This document shows, in pieces, positions 5,113 through 36,018 of a stretch of 36,018 nucleotides of DNA. The position numbers and the translations under genes were made by a program. Under the pieces are notes generated by a model. That model was not told the DNA's origin, searched no databases, and was given only the letters and a program-made list of their open reading frames with translations. The first letter of the stretch is position 1. Every line of letters begins with the position of its first letter. Origin of the DNA: Candidatus Woesearchaeota archaeon (lineage in GTDB: Archaea > Nanobdellota > Nanobdellia > Pacearchaeales > GW2011-AR1); the NCBI GenBank assembly GCA_964530955.1, contig CAZHCL010000009.1, positions 1 through 36,018 on the forward strand, read 5' to 3'.

Positions 5113-6741
5113 TTATTTGCTAATTTCTAGATAGTCTTTGTTATTAACATTCAAAGAAAATGACAAAATTCCATCTTTTTGTTCAAGCACAGTGCAGGTA
5201 TTCGAATTACATTCTTTTCCATCGTACATAGTATTATATGTAATATTATTTTCTGGCATTTGTATTGTTAGGTTGGTGATTCCGCTTCCTCCTAAAATTA
5301 TTGATGCGTTTTTCGCTTCTTTACTTTTCATTGTAGCTGAGAGAATGACTATGTTTTTATTGGTTTTTTCTAAAACTGCAGGTGTTGAGGAATAAATATA
5401 TGTAAATTGGGCAGTGTCTGGATTTTGAGGGTCAACAAGTAGGTTTGGATTTCCTCCAAGGGCTGATAGCTTTAGAGCTTGCCAATACCATTCCCAGGAA
5501 TAATCCATGGGCCAATCAGTATCAAAACTAAAACTTTGTTTTGTTTCATTTCCATATGTTTGATTAATATTTACTGATTGATCAGTTTGGTCGTCATAGG
5601 TTATAAATCTTTGAACTCCTACTGAACTTTTTTCTGCAGTTTCATTGTAAGTAAGAGAAAAATTAATTTGTTTGACTATTCCCAATAGATACTTTGGCTC
5701 TTCATCAGGTGATATTTGGAACCAATCAGTACAACTTCTTGTTTCGATGCTTTCTGGTTTTTCAAATAACAATGAACCGGAATCTGCTTTGAAAGCTCCA
5801 AGAGAATGGGCTTGCCCGTGGGTAGGGTCAATACCTCGTACGTAGAACTTATCATTAGTAGTATTTGTTGTATTAACAAGGAAAACATATTTTGATTTTT
5901 GTATATTGTTATTTTGGTCTTTAATTTCAAGGTTTATTGAGTGGATTCCAATACTTGTTGGAGTAAATTCGCCAAAAACAATTCCATTATTGTTTGTTAA
6001 GGAAAGATTATCACTTGAAGGACTTAATTCTATATCATAATTGCATCTTGAACAGCCCCAGATACTTGATAAATCGACTGAAAAATTGATAGGGATATTG
6101 ATGTAACCTTCGGAAGTACTTTTATCTAACTCTACTGGAGAAAAGATATTATTGTAATAATTGTTTGATTCAAAGATGTTATTTTGACTATCCACAAAGT
6201 AGAATGGATGTAAATTGAAGTTAATGTTATTATTTGCTATTTCGTTTCCTTCGCTTCTTACTACGGTAAGTCCAATATTGGCGCTATTCTTTATTAGATT
6301 ATCTTTTACTTGACTTCTAGTTACATTATTGTATAGTAATATGCCCTGCAAATCTTTTGTCAAAGTATTATTTATTACTGAGATATCATTTGATGACTGC
6401 AAAAATATTCCTACTTCGTAATTGTCAATTGTAAAGTTCTCAATGGTTACATTGCTTATATCTGACAGATATATTCCTGCTAGGTCATTGTTTTTAGTTG
6501 CTGAAAGAGTATGCGTGTTTCCATCTAAAATTACATTATTTGCGTTGATTATTATGCATTGCGGGGAAGTTGCTTGTATGTCATTAGATATAAAGTAATT
6601 TCCTGGTGAAGTTATGTTTTGGCAATTTGATATGGCTATTTCTTTGCTACCGCCTGCTTCTTTTTTTGGCAATGAAAGGAAAAGAAAGATTATCAGGATT
6701 ACGACAACTATTCCTGCAATAACGAACTGAATTTTCCTCAT
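5113..6741 (-). CDS. Membrane-anchored right-handed beta-helix (NosD/CASH, pectin-lyase-like) surface protein
   Basis: N-terminal TM; CQNITSPGNYFISNDI...CIIINANNVILDGN start and GIYL/GIFL/GILL NN-repeats; many NxS/T sequons. Confidence 0.85.
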   Translation of the reverse strand: MRKIQFVIAGIVVVILIIFLFLSLPKKEAGGSKEIAISNCQNITSPGNYFISNDIQATSPQCIIINANNVILDGNTHTLSATKNNDLAGIYLSDISNVTIENFTIDNYEVGIFLQSSNDISVINNTLTKDLQGILLYNNVTRSQVKDNLIKNSANIGLTVVRSEGNEIANNNINFNLHPFYFVDSQNNIFESNNYYNNIFSPVELDKSTSEGYINIPINFSVDLSSIWGCSRCNYDIELSPSSDNLSLTNNNGIVFGEFTPTSIGIHSINLEIKDQNNNIQKSKYVFLVNTTNTTNDKFYVRGIDPTHGQAHSLGAFKADSGSLLFEKPESIETRSCTDWFQISPDEEPKYLLGIVKQINFSLTYNETAEKSSVGVQRFITYDDQTDQSVNINQTYGNETKQSFSFDTDWPMDYSWEWYWQALKLSALGGNPNLLVDPQNPDTAQFTYIYSSTPAVLEKTNKNIVILSATMKSKEAKNASIILGGSGITNLTIQMPENNITYNTMYDGKECNSNTCTVLEQKDGILSFSLNVNNKDYLEISK

Positions 6742-6805
6742 TTTCTCTCAAAACAACTATCTATGGATTATTTATAAATATTCGGTAAGATTGGTAGAAG
6801 ATAAA

Positions 6806-6877
6806 AGCGGAAGGAGGGAGTCGAACCCTCGTCTACAGCGCCACAAGCTGACATTCTACCGTTAAACTACATCCGCC
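6806..6877 (-). tRNA. tRNA-His(GTG) copy 1, encoded G-1, U73
   Basis: GCGGATG/CTTCCGC acceptor (U6-U67 mismatch), loop TT-GTG-GC (U27-U43 mismatch), canonical TTCGACT T-loop. Confidence 0.85.
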
Positions 6878-14369: not shown

Positions 14370-15596
14370 TTAATCTGAGAATCTTGCTATCAATTGTTTT
14401 TCAGTGAGTAGTTCTTCTTTTCCCGTTTTCATATTCTTTATTTTTAATTTACCCTTTTCAATTTCTTCTTCACCTAAGAAAATAACGTAGGGTATGGAAT
14501 ATGCGTTTGCATATTCCATAGACTTTCCTATTTTATCTTTGCTTACTATGCATGAAATGTTTTCTTTTCTTAATTTTCTGGCCAACTTTATCGATTCTGA
14601 TTCTTTGTCTATCGATATAATACTTATCCTAGGTATCGGATTAAAGCTGATGTTTGCTAGAATTGTTGTTCTTTCAAGACCAAAGGATATTCCTACAGCA
14701 GGAATTTCTCGGTTTATGAATTTTCCAACCATTTTATCATACCTGCCTCCTGCTGCTATTGTGCTTTTTCCTTTTTCTTTCACTTCAAATATATTTCCAG
14801 TGTAATATCCAAGACCTCTTGCTAGACAGGGATTAAATTTTGGTTTTAGGCCATACTTATTGCATAAGGTATTTAGTTCAAGCAGTTCCGAAGCTCCATC
14901 AAATGCGTTGTCTTCGAAAAATTGAATATCTTTCTCCAGCAATTTGAAAAGAGTCAATATTTTGTTTGAGTCAGCATATTTTCTCAAATTCGTTTTTACT
15001 GTGTCTTCTCCTATTTTTTCTATTTTATCAATTTCTTTAATTACTTCTTTAGAATTAGATATTTCACAGCTTTCAATTATTGCTGAAAGAAGTTTTCTAT
15101 TATTTATCTGTATTTCTGATTCTATTTTTAATTCTTTTAGAATATCAGATACCAAAGCAAGACATTCTGCATCCGCGTTTATTGAAGAATCTCCTAAAAT
15201 GTCTGCGTCACACTGGACAAACTGTCTGAATCTATCATTAGCTATTGGCTCGTCCCTGAAAACTGGGCCTACTTGATATCTCCTGAAAGGTAGTTTTATG
15301 TTAGGGTTTTGTCTAAATATACGAGATAGTTGGAAAGTGAATTCATATCTTAATCCTAGGTTTCTTCCTGCTCTGTCTTTTAATTTGAATCTGTCTGAAA
15401 CTGCTTCGTCTTCTAATTCATTTGGAAGGCTGGTTGGTTTCATTAATTCATCATGCTCTATTATCGGAGTTTCCACTGGGGAAAAGCCGTACAATTTGAA
15501 ATGCTTTTCAATTATTTCTCTAACTTTTTCACGTTTTAAGGATTCGGGAGGCAGAAAGTCTCTAAAACCCTTAACTGTATCTATTTCTATTTGCAT
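14370..15596 (-). CDS. hisS: Histidine-tRNA ligase, full length with anticodon-binding domain
   Basis: VKGFRDF, motif 2 FRDEP..DRFRQFVQCDAD, ARGLGYYTG, motif 3 GGRYD...GLER, and a C-terminal class IIa anticodon-binding domain. Confidence 0.93.
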   Translation of the reverse strand: MQIEIDTVKGFRDFLPPESLKREKVREIIEKHFKLYGFSPVETPIIEHDELMKPTSLPNELEDEAVSDRFKLKDRAGRNLGLRYEFTFQLSRIFRQNPNIKLPFRRYQVGPVFRDEPIANDRFRQFVQCDADILGDSSINADAECLALVSDILKELKIESEIQINNRKLLSAIIESCEISNSKEVIKEIDKIEKIGEDTVKTNLRKYADSNKILTLFKLLEKDIQFFEDNAFDGASELLELNTLCNKYGLKPKFNPCLARGLGYYTGNIFEVKEKGKSTIAAGGRYDKMVGKFINREIPAVGISFGLERTTILANISFNPIPRISIISIDKESESIKLARKLRKENISCIVSKDKIGKSMEYANAYSIPYVIFLGEEEIEKGKLKIKNMKTGKEELLTEKQLIARFSD

Positions 15597-15620
15597 ATTT
15601 TTCTATCTACTCCTGAGCTT

Positions 15621-16496
15621 TTAATCTTTTCTTTCATCTTTTTTTCGGTCCCTCCTTTCATTTTCCTTTTCTATATCTTCAATGCTTACTCCTTCTTTTG
15701 CCATAATAACGAAGAGAAAATATATCAAGTCGGCAGCCTCCCAGATTAATTGTTCCCTATTTTTGGCAGTTATTACCTCTGCAGCTTCTTCTACAAGCTT
15801 TCTTTTTAAGAGTAGTTCGTCTTTAACAATAGAAGAAGTATAGGAACTGGGACTGTTTGAGTCTATTCTTTCTTTTATTTTCATAAAAAGGCTGTTAAGG
15901 TCAAAGAAATTCTTCTTATTCTTTCCAATTAGTACTATATCTGACTCGAAAAGTTCGTCATAGATTGTCAGGCCAGCAACATCTGCTGATTTACCAGTCA
16001 CCACTATATCTATCACCATATCAGCCAGCCCTTTTGAGAAAAATTCTTCAGTCGCTCCATAGGCATAGGTCTTATCAATTAGGTATCCCTTATTTTCCAA
16101 AAGATTTGTGCAATATTTTTTTGCGAGCTCTTTGTATTTTGTGTTTATGCAAATTTTTATCTTCCTCGGCATTTCCTCCATCTTCTTATTTTTTGGTCCG
16201 AGTAGACATAGAACGGGCTTGCTAAATAACGAGTCTGAGTTCCATGGTTCTCTCTTAATAATTGATAACTTACTATTCCGTACTTTGAGGGTGAATTCCT
16301 TAAATAGGTCTTCTCCCGTTATTCCTATCGCAGTTTTACCTTCTAAAATCAGTTTTTCAGTAAACAAAGGTACATCTTCTCCTCTTACTTCTTCTATTAT
16401 AGAGGATGGACCTTTGATGCTTATCGCTAATTCCCTGCATTTTTTTAATCCAGTGTTTTTAGGAATGATTATGTAATCAACATTCTTAGTTTCCAT
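15621..16496 (-). CDS. hisG: Fusion of short-form ATP phosphoribosyltransferase (HisG) with phosphoribosyl-ATP pyrophosphatase (HisE), 291 aa
   Basis: HisG motifs RGEDVP, GITGED, NTKY, GATE, GLADMVIDIVVTG; HisE motifs SYTSS, KLVEEAAEV, EAADLIY. GGAGGT SD supports ATG 16496. Confidence 0.9.
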   Translation of the reverse strand: METKNVDYIIIPKNTGLKKCRELAISIKGPSSIIEEVRGEDVPLFTEKLILEGKTAIGITGEDLFKEFTLKVRNSKLSIIKREPWNSDSLFSKPVLCLLGPKNKKMEEMPRKIKICINTKYKELAKKYCTNLLENKGYLIDKTYAYGATEEFFSKGLADMVIDIVVTGKSADVAGLTIYDELFESDIVLIGKNKKNFFDLNSLFMKIKERIDSNSPSSYTSSIVKDELLLKRKLVEEAAEVITAKNREQLIWEAADLIYFLFVIMAKEGVSIEDIEKENERRDRKKDERKD

Positions 16497-16518
16497 AAAT
16501 GACCTCCAAGAATATGGA

Positions 16519-16590
16519 AGCGGCAGACGAGAATCGGACTCGCTTCTTCGGCTCCACAAGCCGACATTCTGCCATTAAACTACTGCCGCC
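16519..16590 (-). tRNA. tRNA-His(GTG) copy 2, atypical (T-loop TCCGATT; 3' end ...GC-T-T-CCA)
   Basis: Perfect GCGGCAG/CTGCCGC acceptor, TCGGC-TTGTGGA-GCCGA anticodon arm, encoded G-1; ends about 10 nt before the hisG SD. Confidence 0.82.
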
Positions 16591-17218: not shown

Positions 17219-20200
17219 ATGAGTAAGGTACTTTTCTCACTTAGCATTTTGATTTTTTTATTTTTTATAGCTGGTGCTTATGCTTCTACTCCTGGTGACA
17301 TAAATTCCTGTCAGATTCTTGATTCTCCTGGAGTTTATACTTTAAATCAGGATATTGTTAATTATAGTGGAACTTGTTTTACAATAAGTTCCGATGATGT
17401 TGTTCTTGATGGGCAAGGGCATTCAGTTGGTGGAGTTTGGGATTCTAATAATGCTTATTGGGGAATAAGTGTATCGGATGTAAATAACGCGACAATAAAA
17501 AATATCAATATTATGTCTTTGGGAGATTTTCACCTTCTTGGTGTCTCTGATGGAGGGGGAATATATTTTTCTGCAAGTAATTCATTAATAGACAATGTGA
17601 ATTTAAGTTTCAATTATTATGGTCTTTTTCTTGATTCTGCTCAGAACAATATTGTTTCGAATATTCAGTCAAATTCTAATGCCGCCGATGGAATATATCT
17701 CACACATTCTAGTGATAATTCATTTTCAAATATAAACTCTAATAATAATGGCTACATGGGAATTGAATTAAATGGATTTCCAATTTTATCAGGAAATACT
17801 TTCAATAACGTAAATGCTTCTTCGAATAATCAATATGGTATTTACTTACACTCGCATGCTAGTAGCGACTTTTCTAATATAAACGCAAGTTCAAATGGCG
17901 CGGACGGTATTTCACTTGGGACTTTTTGTTCTGGAACTTTTACAAACATAACCTCTTCTTATAATAATGGTAATGGAATATCTTCCGCAGGTGGAGGAAT
18001 TATTGTAGAATCAGCAACCACAAATTCAAATGGAAATAATGGAATTTCTATAGGTTATGGAGGAATTCATAGTTTATCATCTATAACTGCCAATTCTAAT
18101 GCAAATGCAGGATTATATCTTTCAACCATCCTTTCAGGCTCATTCGAGAATATAACAACATTAAATAATACTGGCAATGGACTTTATTTAATCTCGAGTT
18201 CTGGCAATATATTCAATAACATTGTCTCGGGTTCAAGTGCGGGTGAGGGGATTTATCTTACCGGAAGTTCAAGTAATAGTTTTTCCTCAGTGATTTCATC
18301 TGGTTCTTCTGATGGGATTGTTTTTGCTCTGAACAGTAATTCAAACACTCTAACTAATATAACCTCAATCTCAAACACATTTTCTGGCATCACTTTTTCT
18401 GCAAGTAACTTTAATACCTTAAATAATATCAATGCAAGTCTTAATTCGCAAGACGGAATTGATATAATCAATGGGACATATAATTATTTATTAAATATTA
18501 ATGCTAATTCAAATTCTTTAAACGGATTAAAACTAAGTACATCAAATAATACTCTTCTTTCCCATATAACTCTTAGTTCAAATCAGGGCAATGGATTAGT
18601 TTTATCTATGTCTAGCAACAATAATATTTCTTATTTAAGCTCGATTTTTAATCTCGGAGATGGAATTGATTTTATAGTTTTTAGCTCAAACAATAATTTG
18701 AATTATGTAATCTCATCTAAAAATGTTGGGAGAGGATTATTCTTTTCCTTTGTTTCAGGCACGAATAATACCTTTGATAATACTTTCTCTGCAAACAATG
18801 TTGCCCAAGATTTTTATTCAAATAGTTTGGGTCTTTTCGGAAACAATTATTTTATTGACTCGAGAATTTATAGGTATTTTATCTCATCTGTTAGCACCAG
18901 TAGGTACTATTTTATTAATAGTTCTTTTGGTCAGATAGGATTCTTGATGGGGATAGGCGGTTCAGGCAATACTTTGTTTGCAGATTCTTTGTCACCAGTC
19001 ATCCCAGCATATTCTGATATAAGAATATCAAATGATTCTATCTTTGTAAATATCAGCCAAGTCGGATTTAACAGGGGCGCAAATTTAACGTTATATAATC
19101 TTCCAACAAACATGGTAAATCCTAAAATATATAAGGATAATGTTTTGTGTGCTGCCTGTTATAATTTCACTTCTTTAAATGCTGGAACTGTAATTTTCAA
19201 TGTTAGCTCGGAGGGTAGTGTTTATTCTGTTAATCCTTCTTCTCTTTCTCCATCGGTTTCTTTTGCCGATTCAACAACAGGAGATAATCAAATAGTTCCT
19301 GGAATAATTAGTTATAATATTAGCGCAAATTCAGTAAGCGCTGGTGATGTTTCTTCTATTACGGCATACTTACTAGACTCTTCGAACAATCTTTTACAAG
19401 CAAACACAATATCTTCTTCTCTTAACTCTCATGGAAAGTTTTCAGGCTTGGTAGAGGGTAATTATAGTTTCTATGGCCAGCTGGATTTGAAGAATGGAAC
19501 CAAGCTTTTGACTGAAACAAGAAACATTGCTGTTTCTCTTAGTCTTTCAGTATTATTTGGAGACCCTACTCCTGCAAATAATACTTTAATTAACATGTTT
19601 AATAATAATCTTCAAATTGATGCTTTAACTACTACTTCTCCTTCTAATTTGAGCATATTTTTGCTAAATCAGACTGGGATAATTAAAATGTCTTCATTTG
19701 GATCTGTAACCGAAGCTATAATGAACTTTTCTAATTTATCTGACGGTAATTATAGTTTCTATTCTTTTGCAGTACCATTAAACTCAAGCAATCCAAATAT
19801 GACAAGTGAAGTTAGAAGTTTTGTAGTTGATGCGACTCCCCCAGTATTGTCTAATGTTTCCTTATTTCCTTCATTTGACCAGAACTTTGGAGCAATCGGT
19901 CACAATTTTACATTTGCTTCTTCAAAACCTTCTATTGTGAATCTAGTCTTGAAAGTTTACAATGGGAGTAACAATTTAGTAAATGGATCTCTTATTTTTG
20001 GTCCGATTAATCTAGAAGGTTCAAATTATACTTCTTTAAATCAGGCTTTTTCATTTGGTTCTTCTAATTTTACTTTTGGTATTCCTTCTTATAACTATGA
20101 GGTAGATTTGGTAGCAACTGATAGCTCAGGCAATATTGCAATTTACTCCCTAGGTAACTTTACAAATAATGCTCAGGTAATCTCTTCATCAAATTCAGGT

Positions 20201-20503
20201 GCTGGCTCTGGAGGCGGTTCTTCTGGTGGTTCAAGTTCAGAGAGTAGGACGAATAATGCAAATTCAGGTGCTGGTTCTGCTGGAATTGGAAGTTCTGGCT
20301 CGAATGGCGATTTAAATGTTAATTCAAGGAATCAGACCAATATAACTTCTTCAACAAGTCTAGCTTCTCATATATCCGGAATAATTAATGGAGTTTTTGC
20401 AAAGCCAAGTTCTTTGACTATTGCAGTCCTTATTTTACTTTTGATTATAGTTGCCGCTTTCATCCTAGTTAAGAATCTTATGAATGGTCGAATAGTTAAT
20501 TAA
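17219..20503 (+). CDS. 1,094-aa surface glycoprotein: beta-helix (NosD/PbH1 repeats), Ig-like domains, Gly/Ser linker, C-terminal TM anchor
   Basis: Signal peptide, SCQILDSPGVYTLNQDI start, about 23-aa N..dGI.l repeats, DATPPVLSNV, GS-rich stretch, terminal TM. Confidence 0.9.
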   Translation: MSKVLFSLSILIFLFFIAGAYASTPGDINSCQILDSPGVYTLNQDIVNYSGTCFTISSDDVVLDGQGHSVGGVWDSNNAYWGISVSDVNNATIKNINIMSLGDFHLLGVSDGGGIYFSASNSLIDNVNLSFNYYGLFLDSAQNNIVSNIQSNSNAADGIYLTHSSDNSFSNINSNNNGYMGIELNGFPILSGNTFNNVNASSNNQYGIYLHSHASSDFSNINASSNGADGISLGTFCSGTFTNITSSYNNGNGISSAGGGIIVESATTNSNGNNGISIGYGGIHSLSSITANSNANAGLYLSTILSGSFENITTLNNTGNGLYLISSSGNIFNNIVSGSSAGEGIYLTGSSSNSFSSVISSGSSDGIVFALNSNSNTLTNITSISNTFSGITFSASNFNTLNNINASLNSQDGIDIINGTYNYLLNINANSNSLNGLKLSTSNNTLLSHITLSSNQGNGLVLSMSSNNNISYLSSIFNLGDGIDFIVFSSNNNLNYVISSKNVGRGLFFSFVSGTNNTFDNTFSANNVAQDFYSNSLGLFGNNYFIDSRIYRYFISSVSTSRYYFINSSFGQIGFLMGIGGSGNTLFADSLSPVIPAYSDIRISNDSIFVNISQVGFNRGANLTLYNLPTNMVNPKIYKDNVLCAACYNFTSLNAGTVIFNVSSEGSVYSVNPSSLSPSVSFADSTTGDNQIVPGIISYNISANSVSAGDVSSITAYLLDSSNNLLQANTISSSLNSHGKFSGLVEGNYSFYGQLDLKNGTKLLTETRNIAVSLSLSVLFGDPTPANNTLINMFNNNLQIDALTTTSPSNLSIFLLNQTGIIKMSSFGSVTEAIMNFSNLSDGNYSFYSFAVPLNSSNPNMTSEVRSFVVDATPPVLSNVSLFPSFDQNFGAIGHNFTFASSKPSIVNLVLKVYNGSNNLVNGSLIFGPINLEGSNYTSLNQAFSFGSSNFTFGIPSYNYEVDLVATDSSGNIAIYSLGNFTNNAQVISSSNSGAGSGGGSSGGSSSESRTNNANSGAGSAGIGSSGSNGDLNVNSRNQTNITSSTSLASHISGIINGVFAKPSSLTIAVLILLLIIVAAFILVKNLMNGRIVN

Positions 20504-22123: not shown

Positions 22124-23083
22124 ATGCAGGTTAATGATTTAATCTTCAAGGAGTTGATTAAAAGAGGCTATTCACTTGAAGGTAAAACAAGAGTCTGGAA
22201 TATAGCTGATTCTAAGTTGTGGTATCTGACTCCGGATCAGTCTCAAGGCTATCTTGATTTAGATGCGGATAATACCTATAAAAAGAATACTGGGCAACTT
22301 CTGGCTGAAAATCTTATGAGAGATAATATAAGTGTTATCATTTCTGCTATAGGTAATACTCCTTCAAATATTGTAGATCTTGGCTGTGGGGATGGCAAGA
22401 AAGCTGCCGAGTTATTCCGTGAATTAAAAGAAAAAGCTCCGAATTTAAAAATTAGGTATTGTCCTATTGATATCAGTGGATATATGGTTGAGAAAGCAAT
22501 AGATACTTTCTCTCATCTTGATGTTGATGAAATAATAGAATTTCAGTATAATATTTCTGACTTTGAGAATCTTGAAAATGTTACTCCATTGCTTAGAAAA
22601 GGCAAGTACAAAAAGAATATTATTCTGCTTTTAGGAAACACACTTGGCAATTTTGAAGTTAATGATTTATTGTATGCCATAAGGAGTAGCATGAAAAAAG
22701 GAGATGTATTCATAGTTGATACTGCCGTTGATGACCACAAACAGGAGGAGCGTGCTGAGGCGTATAGGAAGAATAAAAGAGTTAATGATTGGTTAATTCA
22801 CATACCTACGCAGTTGGGGCTATCTAAGGATGATGTTGAATTTGGAGTCAGATTTAGAAACAGTAGAATTGAGGCCTTTTACGTTATTAAGAATGATAAA
22901 AAGGTCACTTTTCAAGACAAGACTGTTTACTTTAATAAGGGTGATCAGATAATAACTGTAGTGGCATATAAACACGATAAAGATGATTTGAAGACTTTTC
23001 TTAATTTGCATTTTGATTCAGTTTCTGTAAAGATTTCAAAAGATAATTCTAAAGCTATTGCTATATGTGAAAAGAAATCTTAA
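22124..23083 (+). CDS. EgtD-like (histidine N-alpha-methyltransferase family) SAM-dependent methyltransferase
   Basis: VDLGCGDGKK, YCPIDIS and LLGNTLGNFE motifs characteristic of the EgtD/Methyltransf_33 family. Confidence 0.8.
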   Translation: MQVNDLIFKELIKRGYSLEGKTRVWNIADSKLWYLTPDQSQGYLDLDADNTYKKNTGQLLAENLMRDNISVIISAIGNTPSNIVDLGCGDGKKAAELFRELKEKAPNLKIRYCPIDISGYMVEKAIDTFSHLDVDEIIEFQYNISDFENLENVTPLLRKGKYKKNIILLLGNTLGNFEVNDLLYAIRSSMKKGDVFIVDTAVDDHKQEERAEAYRKNKRVNDWLIHIPTQLGLSKDDVEFGVRFRNSRIEAFYVIKNDKKVTFQDKTVYFNKGDQIITVVAYKHDKDDLKTFLNLHFDSVSVKISKDNSKAIAICEKKS

Positions 23084-24628: not shown

Positions 24629-24755
24629 TGATCCCGCGGAGATTTGAACTCCGGACCCCTGCCTTTCCTAGCTTTCAAGAAAGCCTTGAAAATAAACTTC
24701 TAGCGAAGCTTACTCCTATAAGAGCAGTGCTCTGAACCAGCTGAGCTACGGGATC
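24629..24755 (-). tRNA. tRNA-Ile(TAT) with a 52-nt intron at 37/38 (intron 24665..24716)
   Basis: GATCCCG/CGGGATC acceptor, A73, loop CT-TAT-A^A, BHB central helix CUUA/UAGG. Confidence 0.9.
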
Positions 24756-29393: not shown

Positions 29394-32300
29394 GTGGTGC
29401 ATAAGAAGTATAGATATGTTAATGGGAAGAGATATGGTCCATACTTATATGAAAACAGCCGTGTAGGAGAAAAGGTAGTTACGCATTATTTAGGTAAGGA
29501 AAAAAACCATTCTAGCAGTAATTTTGTTGTTTTTGTTCTTATTGCTTTGGTCTTGGTTATTGCTTCTTTTATATTAGTATCTCAATTTATTTCTCCTACA
29601 GGGAAAGCAGTTCTTGATATAAGCCAAACTTATATTTCTGGTCAGAATATTTCAGGCAATTTTAGCCTTGTCTTAAAATCGGGAGAATTGCTTCCTGCTT
29701 CTACTTTAGTTAATGTTTCTTTAGCTGGACAAAGTCAGGAGTACCTTCTTTCTGATTTATTACCTCAAGAAACATCTTCTGGAAATTTCTTTTCAGAGGG
29801 GGCTAATCTCAGTGGACAAGGCGATGGCTATGGAATTGTGGGGCAAAAGGTAACTTACCCAGACATAGACTTTTCTTTGTTAATTCAAAACTCTGCTAAT
29901 CAAAATGAAAGCCAATCTGGAACCAGCGGAACCGATACAGGGGGCAGTATAAGTAATCAAAGTCAGAGTAGTTCTTTTGATAATGTAAATACATCTGAAA
30001 ATTCTAGTTCTCAACAACTCTCTCAAGGTCAAGATAATCAGAGCCAGCAAGAACAACAAAGTCAAGAATCTAATCCAGTTCAGTCTACCGCAGATCAATC
30101 GTCTTCTTCAAGCTCTGATTCACAAAGCTCTAGTTCTGACGCGTCAACTACTGTTGATAGTACAGATAGTTCATCTGGTTCAGACGGCTCTGGAAGTTCT
30201 CTTACAGGAGCAGTAATAAATGATTTTTCTCAGGGAAATGTGATAAATGGAAAGACAGGTAAGGATAATCCTTTTATTTATTCTCTTTCTGATGGAGAGA
30301 GTGCTTCTCTTGTTTCTGGAAGCGTTAGATTTAATGGAACTTCCATAGATGATGGCAATGTAAATGTTCAAACTAATTCTTCATCTGTCTTTGTTTCAAC
30401 AAACTTTTCTCAATTTGAGAATGGATTTGGACAGGATTATCTAGGAAATGATACTTCTAGCATTTCTATAGACTTATCTAAACTAAATATTTCTGCCTCT
30501 GAGGGCGTTCTTTCAATTTCTTTGTCTTACAATGGGGAGAATATTGTTTCTGTTGAAAAACAAATTTCTTTGGAAAATAATGCTAACAGTTCAGTCCCTG
30601 TTGAGAATAGCACTTCTATTGCTAATGAAAGCAAGCTTATTCTTGTACAACTAATCCCTGCAATAAGAATTCCTATAGATGGTAGTTATTCTTTGAATCT
30701 CAATGATTACTTTTCTGGAGCAGAGAACTATTCTATTCAACCAATATTAAATATAACTTCATCTATTGCTGGCTCAGAGCTTAGCCTGACTCCTGACCTT
30801 GATTTTAAGGGGGCAAGACAAGCTAAGATAACCTCCTATTCAGGTAATGAAAGCCTCGAGAGTAATACTTTCAATATTATTGTTTCTTCAAGCACAATAA
30901 ATATTCAGACAGTTCACTCTCCTATTAGATTGAACGAGCCAGTAAAGTGGACTAAGAATATAACTTTAGATTCTCCTGATAATGTATCTATTGAACTACC
31001 TGGAATGGCTGAAAATATTTCTGTAAAGAAAATTGAGACTCAGTCAGAAGAAAATGCGTCAGTCAATATAACAACAATATTGACTGGAAATGTTATTTCT
31101 TCTATGAGTAATAGTAAAGGTTCAATATATGCATTTTTGTCTAATATGATAAGTTATATTACTGGCAGGGTAAGCGCAGATATTAACACCGGTGAACAGA
31201 ATAATGCTAGCAGCGATAGTTCCAAACAGGTTATGTTGCAGGACAATGCAACTCAATATACTATTCAATATACTACTCCTGCTCCTGTTTCTGCTGAGCA
31301 GAATATCTCTAATGGAAAGCAAGTTACTATCTCTGATCCTAACAACTTAAATTACACTGAAATACTTTCTTTCACAAATATTCCTGAACTATATAATGTT
31401 GGTCAGGAAGGCAGAATTAAAATTTATTGGGTTGAAAATAAAAGTTATATGCCTTTTGATGCCTATGACTTAGATGGGAACGGAAAGTTGGACTATGTTG
31501 AATGGATAACACCTCACTTGAGCAATCAGACATTCGATATAATCCTTATATCCTCTGCGGAGCATTTAGATGGTAATAGAACTTATTTGGAAGATGTTTC
31601 AGGTTATGTAAATACAAGAGATTACAATTATACTACTATCCCAGAAAATGATTATTTAAGAGTCACTTTCCAGCAAAACTTAACCAATAAAAATGATATT
31701 ACTTTATACGCGAAGAGCGAAAATGGGTCAATAATTGAAGTATATGAGAAGAATGATAGCTTACCTCTCGCTGTTTTTGATAATATAACCCGAGATCAGG
31801 AATACAAGATTTATCTTACTAATTTAACGCATTCGCAGGATACTTTTGATTTGCTAGTTTTGAATAATTCAGTTGATTTTGATTATGTTGTAGACCCTAC
31901 CTTGCTTTTGAATCAATCATCTCAATTATCTTCGGGTGTAACAACTGAGCCTACAAACATCACTAGGTTAAATATTAATTCAACAGGTATTCCTTCACAG
32001 AATCTTGTAGCATATTATTCCTTTGATAGCGATGCAAACTCAACTTATTTTGATTGGAGTGGAAATGGATATAATGGAACTTGCTATAACAACCAATGTC
32101 CCATATTAAATCAAACTTCAAAGTATGGAGTGGGAGCAACCTTTAATGGCAGCATGCTAATTAATATAACAAGTAATGTCAGCAACTGGCCTTTAGGAAG
32201 TTCAAATAGAACGGTAAACGTATGGGTAGAATCAAACGATTCAGGTTCAGCAGGAGGAGCAGATCATTACTTCTTTGCCTATGGAGGACCTTCAAATAAT

Positions 32301-35300
32301 CAGGCATTCATCATGGGAACATACCAAGGACACTTCATATTTACCCAGATAGGCGGAAACATTCAGTCTAATACGCCAGTCTTAGACGGAAAATGGAGAA
32401 TGTTTACTGTTACGATAAATAGCTCGGGAGCAAACATGTGGGTGAACGGGGTTCTTGAAACAGTAGGATTGGGAGGATTAATTAATACAAATACCTATCA
32501 AGCAATGCTGGGAGTTAGCAATCAGTATGCTGTAGGTTCTCAGAGTTTCAACGGAACAATAGATGATTTAATGATATTCAATTCTTCTCTTAACTCATCT
32601 CAAATAATGGATTTGTATAATAATCAATCTCAAAGGTTTTATCCCACCGGACAAAGCAATTCAAAGAATACAACAGACCTAGCTGGAACATGGACAAATG
32701 TAAATGTAAGTTTAGATAATTTCAATGAAATGATGGGAACAAATATAAGCTTGGCTATAGGTTATAATAATTTAACTGGAAACTTTATAACTCCTCCCCA
32801 AAATATCTCTCAGAAAAATGTTAATTATACTTATAATGTTTCAGGAGCAACAAATATAACTCTTAATTTTACTTTAATCTCAGATTCTAAAAATATGTGG
32901 TCTCCATTAATCTATGGAAATGTGACTATAAGTCCTTTCAATATTACGGCAAGTGCTGCAACCTTGAGTATATCATTTGTCTCTCCAACTCCCTCACCCG
33001 GATTAGCTACCAGTAACAATAATTTGATTGTAAACGTAACAGCTACTGCTTCTTTAGGACTAAATAATATCACTATATACCTATTCAATTCAACAAACAA
33101 TCAAATTAATTCAAGCAATTCTTCGACATCACCATTTGCCTATACTTTCTTGGGACTTCCAGATGGAATATATTATTATAATGCTTCGGTATATGATCTC
33201 TCTGGAAATGCTAACTTTACAGGAACGCAGAATATAACAATTAATTCAACCCTTCCTCCAAGTGCTCCTTCAATTAACTTTACCAATCCTACTCCTGCAA
33301 ACGGAACATATCAGTCTGCGGATAGTATTTTTGTGAATATCTCTTCTAATGACACAAATGACATTTATACTTTGCTTGACTTTGATAACACTCTTTCTGC
33401 TTGGTATAGATTCAATAATGAATCTGGAGAGAATTCAACTAAATATAATGACTGGAGTTCTTATGGAAATAATGGAACTTGTTATACTGGATTCTGTCCA
33501 TCGGCAGTTCTTTCAGCAAGGTTTGGAAAAGGAGTAAATTTCAACGGTTCGCAATTCATAAATATTACACAGTTTGATAATTGGCCTTATGGCACAACAA
33601 ACAGGACTTTTAATGCTTGGATTAAATATAATGGGAGTGTTGATTCGCAAGACAGATACTTCTTTTCCTATGGAACTCTAGCAGGTAGTCAGTTTTTTGG
33701 AGTAGGCACAATTTCAGGAAAAGTCATATTTACTCAGGTTGGGAGTAATATACAATCTACTTCACAGATATCAGATAATAAATGGTATATGGTTACTGTT
33801 AATTATAATGGAACAGCTCAGCTTTTCGTTAATGGAGTTCAGCAAGCTTCAGGGCTCTCATCTTCCGTTAATACAATTAAAGGACAGGCTCATTTTGGAG
33901 ATTCATTCTCTGTTGGGACTCAGTCTTGGAATGGAACTCTCGATGATGCGATTATATTTAATAGGTCATTAAGTCCTACTGAAATTCTATCTTTATATAA
34001 CTCTTCGACTACTCAGTATAACAATAACTTTACTTCTCTTGCTCAGGGAAGTCATACTTTTACAGGTTATGCAGTAAACTCTCTGGGTTCAAAAAATCAA
34101 ACTGAAACCAGGACCGTAGCGATAGACTCAATTTCTCCTTCAATTAATTTCACTAATCCTACTCCTGCGAATGGGTTATTTGTGACTAATAATAATCTAA
34201 CAATAAATTTAACTGCTGCAGACTCTTCTGGCATTAAAAATATAACTCTTTTCTTATTTAATTCAACAAATAATCAGATTAATTCAAGCAATTCTTCGAC
34301 ATCACCATTTGCCTATACTTTCTTGGGACTTCCAGATGGAATATATTATTATAATGCTTCGGTATATGATCTCTCTGGAAATGCTAACTTTACAGGAACG
34401 CAGAATATAACAATTAATTCAACCCTTCCTCCAAGTGCTCCTTCAATTAACTTTACCAATCCTACTCCTGCAAACGGAACATATCAGTCTGCGGATAGTA
34501 TTTTTGTGAATATCTCTTCTAATGACACAAATGACATTTATACTTTGCTTGACTTTGATAACACTCTTTCTGCTTGGTATAGATTCAATAATGAATCTGG
34601 AGAGAATTCAACTAAATATAATGACTGGAGTTCTTATGGAAATAATGGAACTTGTTATACTGGATTCTGTCCATCGGCAGTTCTTTCAGCAAGGTTTGGA
34701 AAAGGAGTAAATTTCAACGGTTCGCAATTCATAAATATTACACAGTTTGATAATTGGCCTTATGGCACAACAAACAGGACTTTTAATGCTTGGATTAAAT
34801 ATAATGGGAGTGTTGATTCGCAAGACAGATACTTCTTTTCCTATGGAACTCTAGCAGGTAGTCAGTTTTTTGGAGTAGGCACAATTTCAGGAAAAGTCAT
34901 ATTTACTCAGGTTGGGAGTAATATACAATCTACTTCACAGATATCAGATAATAAATGGTATATGGTTACTGTTAATTATAATGGAACAGCTCAGCTTTTC
35001 GTTAATGGAGTTCAGCAAGCTTCAGGGCTCTCATCTTCCGTTAATACAATTAAAGGACAGGCTCATTTTGGAGATTCATTCTCTGTTGGGACTCAGTCTT
35101 GGAATGGAACTCTCGATGATGCGATTATATTTAATAGGTCATTAAGTCCTACTGAAATTCTATCTTTATATAACTCTTCGACTACTCAGTATAACAATAA
35201 CTTTACTTCTCTTGCTCAGGGAAGTCATACTTTTACAGGTTATGCAGTAAACTCTCTGGGTTCAAAAAATCAAACTGAAACCAGGACCGTAGCGATAGAC

Positions 35301-36018
35301 TCAATTTCTCCTTCAATTAATTTCACTAATCCTACTCCTGCAAATGGGTTGTTTACTCAGAACAATAATCTAACAATAAACATAACTGCTGCAGACTCTT
35401 CTGGCATTAAAAATATAACTCTTTTCTTGTTTGATTCGACTCAAACACAGATAAATTCAAGTAATTCGTCACTCTCTCCTTTCAGCTATACTTTCTTGGG
35501 ACTTCCGGATGGTTTATATTATTACAATGCCTCGGTGTATGACTTGGCTGGGAACGTCAATTTTACCTCTACTCAGAGTATTTTTATAGATTCAATCTCT
35601 CCATCAATTAACTTCACTAATCCTACACCTGCAAACGGAACATTTCAGTTAACCAACAGTATCTTTGTGAATATCAGTAGCAGTAGCACAAAAGATCATT
35701 ATACTCTCCTTGATTTTGATAAATCATTAATACTTTGGATGAGATTGAACAATGAATCAAGCGAAAATCCTACCTTGTTTAGAGATTGGAGTTCTTATGG
35801 TAACAATGGAACATGTTACGGAACAGCCTGTCCTACTTTAAATGTTACTGGGAAATTCGGCCATGCTTATTCTTTTGCTGGGCAGTACATAAATATAACT
35901 ACCAATGTAAGTAATTTCCCAAGTGGAAATTCTGCAAGAACGATGGGTGCATGGATAAATGTAAATTCGACCTTCCTAGGAAGTGGCGATGCAGAATTTG
36001 TCTCTTATGGAACAACTG
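29394..36018 (+). CDS. Giant surface protein (>2,200 aa, runs off the window): basic N-terminal domain, TM, Ser/Gln-rich linker, EF-hand-like DLDGNGKLD, at least 4 LamG/ConA-like domains alternating with Ig-like domains
   Basis: Manual translation from GTG 29394 found no stop to 36018; LamG motifs NLVAYYSFD, D[W]SG/SYGNNG, NGTIDDLMIFN, WYMVTV. Absent from the ORF track because it has no stop codon. Confidence 0.9.
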   Translation, partial: MVHKKYRYVNGKRYGPYLYENSRVGEKVVTHYLGKEKNHSSSNFVVFVLIALVLVIASFILVSQFISPTGKAVLDISQTYISGQNISGNFSLVLKSGELLPASTLVNVSLAGQSQEYLLSDLLPQETSSGNFFSEGANLSGQGDGYGIVGQKVTYPDIDFSLLIQNSANQNESQSGTSGTDTGGSISNQSQSSSFDNVNTSENSSSQQLSQGQDNQSQQEQQSQESNPVQSTADQSSSSSSDSQSSSSDASTTVDSTDSSSGSDGSGSSLTGAVINDFSQGNVINGKTGKDNPFIYSLSDGESASLVSGSVRFNGTSIDDGNVNVQTNSSSVFVSTNFSQFENGFGQDYLGNDTSSISIDLSKLNISASEGVLSISLSYNGENIVSVEKQISLENNANSSVPVENSTSIANESKLILVQLIPAIRIPIDGSYSLNLNDYFSGAENYSIQPILNITSSIAGSELSLTPDLDFKGARQAKITSYSGNESLESNTFNIIVSSSTINIQTVHSPIRLNEPVKWTKNITLDSPDNVSIELPGMAENISVKKIETQSEENASVNITTILTGNVISSMSNSKGSIYAFLSNMISYITGRVSADINTGEQNNASSDSSKQVMLQDNATQYTIQYTTPAPVSAEQNISNGKQVTISDPNNLNYTEILSFTNIPELYNVGQEGRIKIYWVENKSYMPFDAYDLDGNGKLDYVEWITPHLSNQTFDIILISSAEHLDGNRTYLEDVSGYVNTRDYNYTTIPENDYLRVTFQQNLTNKNDITLYAKSENGSIIEVYEKNDSLPLAVFDNITRDQEYKIYLTNLTHSQDTFDLLVLNNSVDFDYVVDPTLLLNQSSQLSSGVTTEPTNITRLNINSTGIPSQNLVAYYSFDSDANSTYFDWSGNGYNGTCYNNQCPILNQTSKYGVGATFNGSMLINITSNVSNWPLGSSNRTVNVWVESNDSGSAGGADHYFFAYGGPSNNQAFIMGTYQGHFIFTQIGGNIQSNTPVLDGKWRMFTVTINSSGANMWVNGVLETVGLGGLINTNTYQAMLGVSNQYAVGSQSFNGTIDDLMIFNSSLNSSQIMDLYNNQSQRFYPTGQSNSKNTTDLAGTWTNVNVSLDNFNEMMGTNISLAIGYNNLTGNFITPPQNISQKNVNYTYNVSGATNITLNFTLISDSKNMWSPLIYGNVTISPFNITASAATLSISFVSPTPSPGLATSNNNLIVNVTATASLGLNNITIYLFNSTNNQINSSNSSTSPFAYTFLGLPDGIYYYNASVYDLSGNANFTGTQNITINSTLPPSAPSINFTNPTPANGTYQSADSIFVNISSNDTNDIYTLLDFDNTLSAWYRFNNESGENSTKYNDWSSYGNNGTCYTGFCPSAVLSARFGKGVNFNGSQFINITQFDNWPYGTTNRTFNAWIKYNGSVDSQDRYFFSYGTLAGSQFFGVGTISGKVIFTQVGSNIQSTSQISDNKWYMVTVNYNGTAQLFVNGVQQASGLSSSVNTIKGQAHFGDSFSVGTQSWNGTLDDAIIFNRSLSPTEILSLYNSSTTQYNNNFTSLAQGSHTFTGYAVNSLGSKNQTETRTVAIDSISPSINFTNPTPANGLFVTNNNLTINLTAADSSGIKNITLFLFNSTNNQINSSNSSTSPFAYTFLGLPDGIYYYNASVYDLSGNANFTGTQNITINSTLPPSAPSINFTNPTPANGTYQSADSIFVNISSNDTNDIYTLLDFDNTLSAWYRFNNESGENSTKYNDWSSYGNNGTCYTGFCPSAVLSARFGKGVNFNGSQFINITQFDNWPYGTTNRTFNAWIKYNGSVDSQDRYFFSYGTLAGSQFFGVGTISGKVIFTQVGSNIQSTSQISDNKWYMVTVNYNGTAQLFVNGVQQASGLSSSVNTIKGQAHFGDSFSVGTQSWNGTLDDAIIFNRSLSPTEILSLYNSSTTQYNNNFTSLAQGSHTFTGYAVNSLGSKNQTETRTVAIDSISPSINFTNPTPANGLFTQNNNLTINITAADSSGIKNITLFLFDSTQTQINSSNSSLSPFSYTFLGLPDGLYYYNASVYDLAGNVNFTSTQSIFIDSISPSINFTNPTPANGTFQLTNSIFVNISSSSTKDHYTLLDFDKSLILWMRLNNESSENPTLFRDWSSYGNNGTCYGTACPTLNVTGKFGHAYSFAGQYINITTNVSNFPSGNSARTMGAWINVNSTFLGSGDAEFVSYGTT
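33105..35341 (+). repeat. Tandem duplication, period 1,173 nt (391 aa): 33105..34168 appears identical to 34278..35341
   Basis: Visual alignment; the alternative-frame ORFs 33349/34522 and 33739/34912 are identical and offset by exactly 1,173 nt; a diverged third unit follows. Confidence 0.92.

Follow-up and report, generated by a model that had tools for sequence, protein, structure and literature searches.

A HisG-HisE fusion between tRNA-His and hisS in a Woesearchaeota archaeon, and the operon erosion that may have produced it

In this work we describe a compact module of three genes from a Candidatus Woesearchaeota archaeon (GTDB lineage Archaea; Nanobdellota; Nanobdellia; Pacearchaeales; GW2011-AR1). 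The module lies on contig CAZHCL010000009.1 of assembly GCA_964530955.1, of which positions 1 to 36,018 were analysed. This whole stretch of 36,018 nucleotides is called the window in what follows, and its numbering is used for all coordinates of the source genome. The module consists of a gene for tRNA-His, a fusion of a short-form hisG with hisE (hisG-E), and hisS, which encodes histidyl-tRNA synthetase (HisRS). In the order of transcription its parts are as follows.

16515-16590, minus strand: tRNA-His(GUG), isodecoder A (ARAGORN; Rfam RF00005, 61.7 bits; sequence read)
16497-16514, minus strand: spacer of 18 nt, with a GGAGGT Shine-Dalgarno sequence 5 nt before the ATG (sequence)
15621-16496, minus strand: hisG(short)-hisE fusion, 291 amino acids, protein P0001 (Pfam, NCBIfam, AlphaFold2 and Foldseek)
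15597-15620, minus strand: intergenic gap of 24 nt, from the hisG-E stop to the hisS start (sequence)
14370-15596, minus strand: hisS, 408 amino acids, protein P0002 (TIGR00442, HGTP_anticodon, sole PF13393 match in the assembly)

A preliminary description of this DNA had read the locus as three tightly packed and co-oriented genes, with the Shine-Dalgarno sequence about 10 nt from the tRNA end and a gap of 24 nt before hisS. ARAGORN and the open reading frame (ORF) coordinates bear this out, with all three genes on the minus strand, GGAGGT 7-11 nt after the tRNA end and the gap at its expected length. The tRNA-His encodes G-1, has U73 as its discriminator and is followed by TATTCTTGGAGGTCATTT-ATG, a spacer too small for a leader ORF. 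It is the first element of the module and probably its promoter-proximal unit. The GC content across the module and its flanks is flat at 33-35%, and a foreign origin of the module was considered and rejected.

The first protein is composed of an ATP phosphoribosyltransferase core (residues ~1-195) and a pyrophosphohydrolase (~200-285) that acts on the product of that core, N1-phosphoribosyl-ATP (PR-ATP). The Pfam HisG domain (PF01634) matches residues 49-211 with 68.5 bits (cut-off 25.5) and PRA-PH (PF01503) matches residues 206-282 with 60.2 bits. The HisE model TIGR03188 scores 70.4 bits against a cut-off of 42.7; the hisG model TIGR00070 reaches 57.5 bits and so stays under its cut-off of 75.75, which marks the clade as divergent. 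Neither Pfam nor NCBIfam finds a HisG_C domain in the protein, where residues 200-285 are PRA-PH. An AlphaFold2 model with a mean predicted local distance difference test score (pLDDT) of 93.8 shows the PRA-PH part as a helical bundle, and its best Foldseek matches are ATP phosphoribosyltransferases of both the short and the long form (1o63, 1usy_E, 2vd3, 6fu7).

Both active sites of the fusion are strongly conserved. The residues R38-G-E-D41, E150 and D163-x-x-x-T-G168-K-S170 align with HisG of Thermotoga maritima. Among 59 G-E proteins, conservation of at least 95% is seen at R38, G39, E40, D41, E150, D163 and G168, with S170 slightly below that at 90-95%. The HisE part carries the metal-binding motif EExxE...ExxD; here S218, Y219 and the metal-site residues E236, E237, E240, E253 and D256 are again at least 95% conserved in the same 59 proteins. 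Across 13 genomes with both a one-piece G-E fusion and HisRS, the mean pairwise identity is 51.0% for the fusion versus 51.6% for HisRS, so by this measure the fusion is apparently diverging no faster than HisRS, and it appears to be under selection rather than decaying. The closest available pairs share only ~65-70% of their protein sequence, a distance at which synonymous sites would be saturated. Furthermore, the fusion junctions keep whole domains. From this combination of catalytic-residue conservation, HisRS-like divergence and intact domains we conclude that the protein is probably functional, and we predict that it is active as an enzyme.

The second protein, judged by profiles and conserved residues, is a genuine HisRS rather than HisZ, and the only histidyl-tRNA synthetase of the genome. 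It scores 327.9 bits with the hisS model TIGR00442 (cut-off 286.75) and fails the hisZ model TIGR00443, with 170.6 bits versus a cut-off of 271.65. The anticodon-binding domain HGTP_anticodon (PF03129) is found at residues 329-406, the GGRYD motif is present, and in 53 orthologues R260, G261, Y264 and Y265 are invariant while R83, R124 and Q128 are at least 90% conserved. No other protein of the assembly matches PF13393.

What remains of histidine biosynthesis in the source genome? The assembly comprises 26 contigs (761 kb in all), with a completeness of 82.7%. At this completeness no hisZ was found, the only PF13393 gene being that for HisRS, and there was no match to HisA/F (PF00977), HisI (PF01502), HisD (PF00815) or IGPD/HisB (PF00475); HisC and HisH were not searched, as their families are unspecific. 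The same searches matched 14 of 14 control genomes each time. PRPP synthetase, which makes phosphoribosyl pyrophosphate (PRPP), was found, so both substrates of HisG are available. The preliminary description had proposed a short HisG core without a regulatory domain, HisE fused in the place of that domain, a full-length HisRS with its motifs and anticodon domain, a window with no other his genes and a system free of hisZ. The profile matches, missing HisG_C domain and conserved residues agree with the first three proposals, and the fourth extends to the whole assembly for hisZ, HisI, HisA/F, HisB and HisD. The fifth holds genome-wide, and also among the relatives that are described below.

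A protein search returned 319 relatives of the fusion, and those with a source name come from Pacearchaeota, Nanoarchaeota or unclassified archaea. They take three main forms, namely G-E fusions of ~290 amino acids, triple fusions of ~390 amino acids with the domain order HisG-HisI-HisE by Pfam, and stand-alone short HisG. We examined 31 DPANN loci, of which 29 belong to GTDB species genomes and 2 to metagenome contigs. Linkage to tRNA-His and HisRS, whose lack among relatives would have spoken against the preliminary description, is conserved among them. In 22 of the 31 loci hisG directly follows a tRNA-His gene, and in 27 it is itself followed on the same strand by a HisRS gene, mostly within 60 nt or overlapping and sometimes with 1-4 genes between; most of the others are at contig ends. 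The tRNA-hisG spacers of the 22 relatives are mostly 14-50 nt long, with seven of 126-467 nt, and a GGAGG-type Shine-Dalgarno sequence is typical. No His-rich ORF was found in the spacers of the window and these relatives, including the longer gaps. In locus L021 (9773-9986), and also in the spacers of L065 and L071, there is a unit of ~95 nt that occurs as a tandem duplicate and ends with a copy of the tRNA 3' end (...CTCCTTTCGCTT); it has the look of a partly duplicated tRNA or of a repeat element.

The lack of hisZ and of most of the pathway is shared by these relatives. Exactly one PF13393 gene is found in 28 of the 29 HisG-bearing genomes, and all seven of the linked HisS-like proteins that were tested against NCBIfam score far above hisZ with the hisS model. 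A short HisG without HisZ is thus the rule in this DPANN clade. HisI is present in 8 of the 29 genomes, genuine HisA/F in 4 (one interrupted by stop codons), HisD in 4 and IGPD in 1. A single genome, G223, has the whole pathway, likewise without hisZ, and on its genes it looks like the only one able to make histidine.

When the loci are compared, the genes around hisG form a graded series. At one end is a full operon, hisG-D-C/HAD-B-H-F-[A-I-E], which lies 3.5 kb upstream of hisS, and next to it in the series comes the Iainarchaeum cluster that is described below. Smaller clusters consist of hisG with hisA-I-E and hisS; of G-I-E and hisS, with or without HisD; of G, E, a racemase in some cases, HisD, a GNAT protein in some cases and hisS; of G-E and hisS, as in the source window and in locus L020; and of G and hisS. 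Among the longer relatives HisG is fused to HisD, to HisC and HAD, or to I-E and HAD. Broken pieces are also found, e.g. a HisA/F remnant that adjoins hisG in genome G228 and a truncated HisI joined to HisG in protein P0096.

Some of these loci hold further genes of interest. The metagenome-assembled genome (MAG) of an Iainarchaeum (L076, 9662-14428) has tRNA-His, hisG-E, hisI, hisH, hisF, hisA and hisS, and neither HisB nor HisD was found in that genome. On gene content its pathway would stop at imidazole glycerol phosphate (IGP) and 5-aminoimidazole-4-carboxamide ribonucleotide (AICAR), and the cluster might serve as a shunt from ATP to AICAR, i.e. for purine interconversion. Between hisG-E and hisS, locus L053 (10836-13017) encodes a 139-residue protein of unknown function, a HAD phosphatase (Hydrolase_3) and an inosine-uridine nucleoside hydrolase, and locus L086 (10841-13214) encodes an Asp/Glu racemase, HisD and a GNAT acetyltransferase.

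The origin of the fusion can be approached in two ways. In a tree of the HisG domain, obtained by a quick IQ-TREE search, the architectures interleave, and its well-supported branches require no fewer than 8 changes for G-E. A more direct example is given by loci L020 and L085, which come from one sample and one species. For 9 kb in either direction their flanks share 98.2% identity. The genes between the flanks are hisG, hisA-I-E and hisS in L085, and hisG-E and hisS in L020. The E portion of the L020 fusion shows 98% identity with the corresponding domain of hisAIE in L085, and 983 nt that encode A and I are absent from L020. In coordinates, L020 9214-10553 corresponds to L085 9682-11535, a tract of ~1.3 kb that adds a 116-residue ORF, swaps a tRNA-His/hisG segment for one of 76% identity and drops the HisA and HisI domains. 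The interleaved tree and this pair of loci together suggest that G-E fusions have formed repeatedly as the genes that separated hisG from hisE were lost. The pair is also a within-species example of how the loss of two domains can create a new fusion enzyme.

A tRNA-His gene upstream of hisS is also found where hisG is absent. HisRS is matched in 185 of 201 sampled genomes of the same order, nearly always once. Of the 30 closest hisS loci, 17 are preceded by a tRNA-His gene in the same orientation, and 15 of these are in HisG-less genomes (15 of 27 such loci). The pairing of tRNA-His with hisS is therefore a family trait and not special to the HisG-E system, and hisG-E is an occasional occupant of the interval between them. 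A profile hidden Markov model run against six-frame pieces of the 30 loci found no hisG-E remnant in the HisG-less ones, matching only the three known carriers. In comparisons with HisG-less congeners only hisS aligns, and no insertion or deletion boundary was mapped.

Operon erosion is the explanation that is best supported by these results. We propose, with a probability of roughly 0.6, that the module is a recurrent and conserved end-state of an eroding DPANN his operon, in which the enzyme is retained for a dispensable function. The ancestral operon would have been bracketed by tRNA-His at its 5' end and hisS at its 3' end. As the middle genes were lost, hisG would have been joined in frame to whichever neighbour was left behind (I-E, E or D). 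The present operon would be led by tRNA-His, followed by HisG-E and then by the single genuine HisRS of the cell, with the tRNA promoter presumably driving co-transcription of all three genes. The predicted reaction of HisG-E runs from ATP and PRPP to PR-ATP, and from there to N1-phosphoribosyl-AMP (PR-AMP) and pyrophosphate. Short HisG (HisG_S) on its own has low activity that is insensitive to histidine (PMC10795190), so the fusion could plausibly make PR-AMP without HisZ, if only weakly and without histidine feedback. HisE may pull the reaction by clearing inhibitory PR-ATP, and the product would be used outside canonical histidine synthesis. The overall interpretation in the preliminary description is thus retained in part. 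Its anatomy, the lack of both hisZ and the remaining pathway, and the linkage all stand, its proposal that HisRS acts as a HisZ-type subunit gained no support from our analysis, and erosion is an explanation that it had not considered.

Several observations weigh against this proposal. A dead-end pathway under purifying selection lacks an explanation. On gene content the relatives would stop at PR-ATP, at phosphoribosylformimino-AICAR-phosphate (ProFAR), at its phosphoribulosyl isomer (PRFAR) or at AICAR and IGP, unlike what a specific role for PR-AMP would give. The gene is dispensable, as hisG-E is matched in only 8 of the 201 genomes of the order, one of them weakly (G152, 27% identity), and is missing from 2 of 4 congeners. 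The hisG segments of L020 and L085 are only 76% identical, which means that this change involved a recombination tract and was not a simple deletion. Finally, all of the genomes are MAGs that are 78-91% complete.

Could the enzyme have a more specific role that no longer rests on histidine synthesis? The idea that many DPANN archaea keep a short HisG without HisZ, in most cases as a fusion with HisE, for a role other than the making of histidine, e.g. as a partner of HisRS or as a source of PR-AMP for symbiosis, is one that we put forward tentatively and regard as rather improbable. In its first form the sole intact HisRS would bind and activate HisG_S and relay the status of histidine or of tRNA-His charging, much as an ancestral HisZ might have done; the preliminary description had named this form first, and we consider it unlikely. 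Organisms with hisG_S are expected to harbour hisZ (PMC8305728), and none was found in 28 DPANN genomes with HisG_S, including G223 with its complete pathway. HisZ proteins that retain an anticodon domain do exist in Geobacteraceae (PMC2923632), and hisG and hisS are adjacent or near each other in 27 of 31 loci. This adjacency has a simpler cause, namely that tRNA-His is commonly found upstream of hisS without any hisG. The pairwise identities of G-E and HisRS correlate with r = 0.65, which shared descent explains equally well.

No alignment column separates HisG-linked from HisG-less HisRS, and congeners without hisG-E keep an ordinary HisRS orthologue that is 64-70% identical. Among the longer proteins HisG is found fused to D, C/HAD and I-E, but never to HisRS. 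These three results leave the proposed double role of HisRS unsupported. In addition, HisZ is not strictly required for the activity of HisG_S (PMC10795190), and where the pathway is missing it is hard to see what feedback on PR-ATP synthesis would be for. A complex prediction with two copies of the HisRS catalytic domain (1-320) and the HisG core (1-197) gave a score of 0.02, with the mark at 0.32, and counts neither way. Were the HisRS-partner form true, it would couple ATP and PRPP or histidine status to the charging of tRNA-His, and would be a living analogue of the state before HisZ.

In the second form, which is close to the alternative given in the preliminary description, PR-AMP (or PR-ATP) would be useful in its own right, e.g. 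as a signal, as a metabolite bound for the host or as what some unrecognised enzyme acts on, and HisG-HisE would be a complete pathway of two steps. This agrees with the purifying selection on the fusion. Both active sites are strictly conserved in genomes without steps 3-9, PRPP synthetase is present, and G-E arises repeatedly from G-I-E or from G and A-I-E, with E intact while I is lost or truncated; the extra enzymes between G-E and hisS in L053 and L086 would also fit. Against it, the different end points of the relatives look more like a pathway at successive points of decay than like the choice of a single product, the surroundings of the module hold no conserved gene for a candidate consumer, and the fusion gene is missing from most of the family. 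Phosphorylated intermediates are poorly suited to exchange across membranes, which makes them poor candidates for a metabolite passed to a host. We therefore think it quite doubtful that PR-AMP is the reason for the module.

A last alternative, that hisG-E is a functionless relic kept by its position between the promoter and tRNA and the essential hisS, such that only in-frame and non-polar variants survive, draws on the graded erosion series, the frequent complete loss, the broken HisA/F beside hisG in G228 and the truncated HisI of P0096, but it is very improbable, since a mere need to keep hisS expressed would maintain the reading frame but not the catalytic residues, which are at least 95% conserved in both domains, and since the divergence equals that of HisRS and the junctions keep whole domains and not random pieces.

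How does the module compare with known systems? The HisG_S-HisZ enzymes of Lactococcus lactis, Thermotoga maritima (1USY), Psychrobacter arcticus and Acinetobacter baumannii share with the fusion a two-domain core of ~195 residues without a C-terminal regulatory domain, the fold (Foldseek template modelling score ~0.7 by target) and a conserved PRPP loop with the catalytic Arg, Glu and Asp. Unlike these, the fusion is joined to HisE, scores below the TIGR00070 cut-off and adjoins a genuine HisRS, and there is no hisZ in the source genome or in 28 related ones, nor the rest of the pathway in the source genome. The HisIE proteins (hisI-hisE fusions, HISN2 in plants) resemble it in the PRA-PH domain, in the EExxE...ExxD metal site and in that consecutive steps are fused. 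They differ in that their HisE is joined to step 3, whereas here it is joined to step 1 (HisG); related loci have G-I-E and full DPANN operons have A-I-E. The Geobacteraceae HisZ that retains its anticodon-binding domain (PMC2923632) is, like P0002, a full-length HisS-like protein in a genome with short hisG. Geobacteraceae have two HisS-like genes, for a true HisRS and for HisZ, in contrast to the source genome with its one gene, which scores as hisS.

The literature on HisZ states that it is confined to bacteria (PMC9437257), that organisms with hisG_S are expected to harbour it (PMC8305728) and that HisG_S by itself does catalyse its reaction, though slowly and without a response to histidine (PMC10795190). 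A DPANN clade with HisG_S and without hisZ, whether its pathway is complete or not, breaks the rule that a short hisG implies hisZ, and it departs both from the expectation of hisZ alongside hisG_S and from the bacteria-only statement. Our literature searches found no published description of the tRNA-His/hisG-E/hisS module, in keeping with the preliminary description, which had known of none.

The module offers a clear, multi-stage picture of how ultra-small symbionts lose a biosynthetic operon from around a gene that is essential. It also poses a puzzle. Why are two dead-end enzymes held under selection as strong as that on HisRS? The answer bears on the origin of HisZ from HisRS and on the exchange of metabolites between DPANN archaea and their hosts.

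The window holds a second tRNA-His gene outside the module, which the preliminary description had overlooked.

6805-6877, minus strand: tRNA-His(GUG), isodecoder B (ARAGORN; Rfam, 62.6 bits at 6806-6876)

Both isodecoders encode G-1 and have U73, and the same pair, also with U73, occurs in another genome of the genus (G151). The tRNA-His upstream of hisG has C73 in loci L002, L017 and L018. U73 may be a genus-level change in an identity element for HisRS.

Two more tRNA genes, at 24629-24755 and 359-528 on the minus strand, were found by Rfam (53.1 and 48.0 bits) and missed by ARAGORN. Their lengths of 127 and 170 nt suggest that they contain introns. On the plus strand, 22124-23083 encodes a protein of 319 amino acids that matches Pfam Methyltransf_33 with 88.5 bits, a family of EgtD-type, histidine-specific methyltransferases that use S-adenosylmethionine. 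This gene is 5.5 kb from the histidine module and is unexpected in a biosynthesis-poor DPANN genome. Finally, large secreted or surface proteins with right-handed beta-helix or NosD repeats are encoded at 17219-20503 (plus strand), 5113-6741 (minus strand) and 29394-36017 (plus strand). One of these is longer than 2208 amino acids and extends beyond the window, and proteins of this type are common in the cell-surface repertoires of DPANN archaea.

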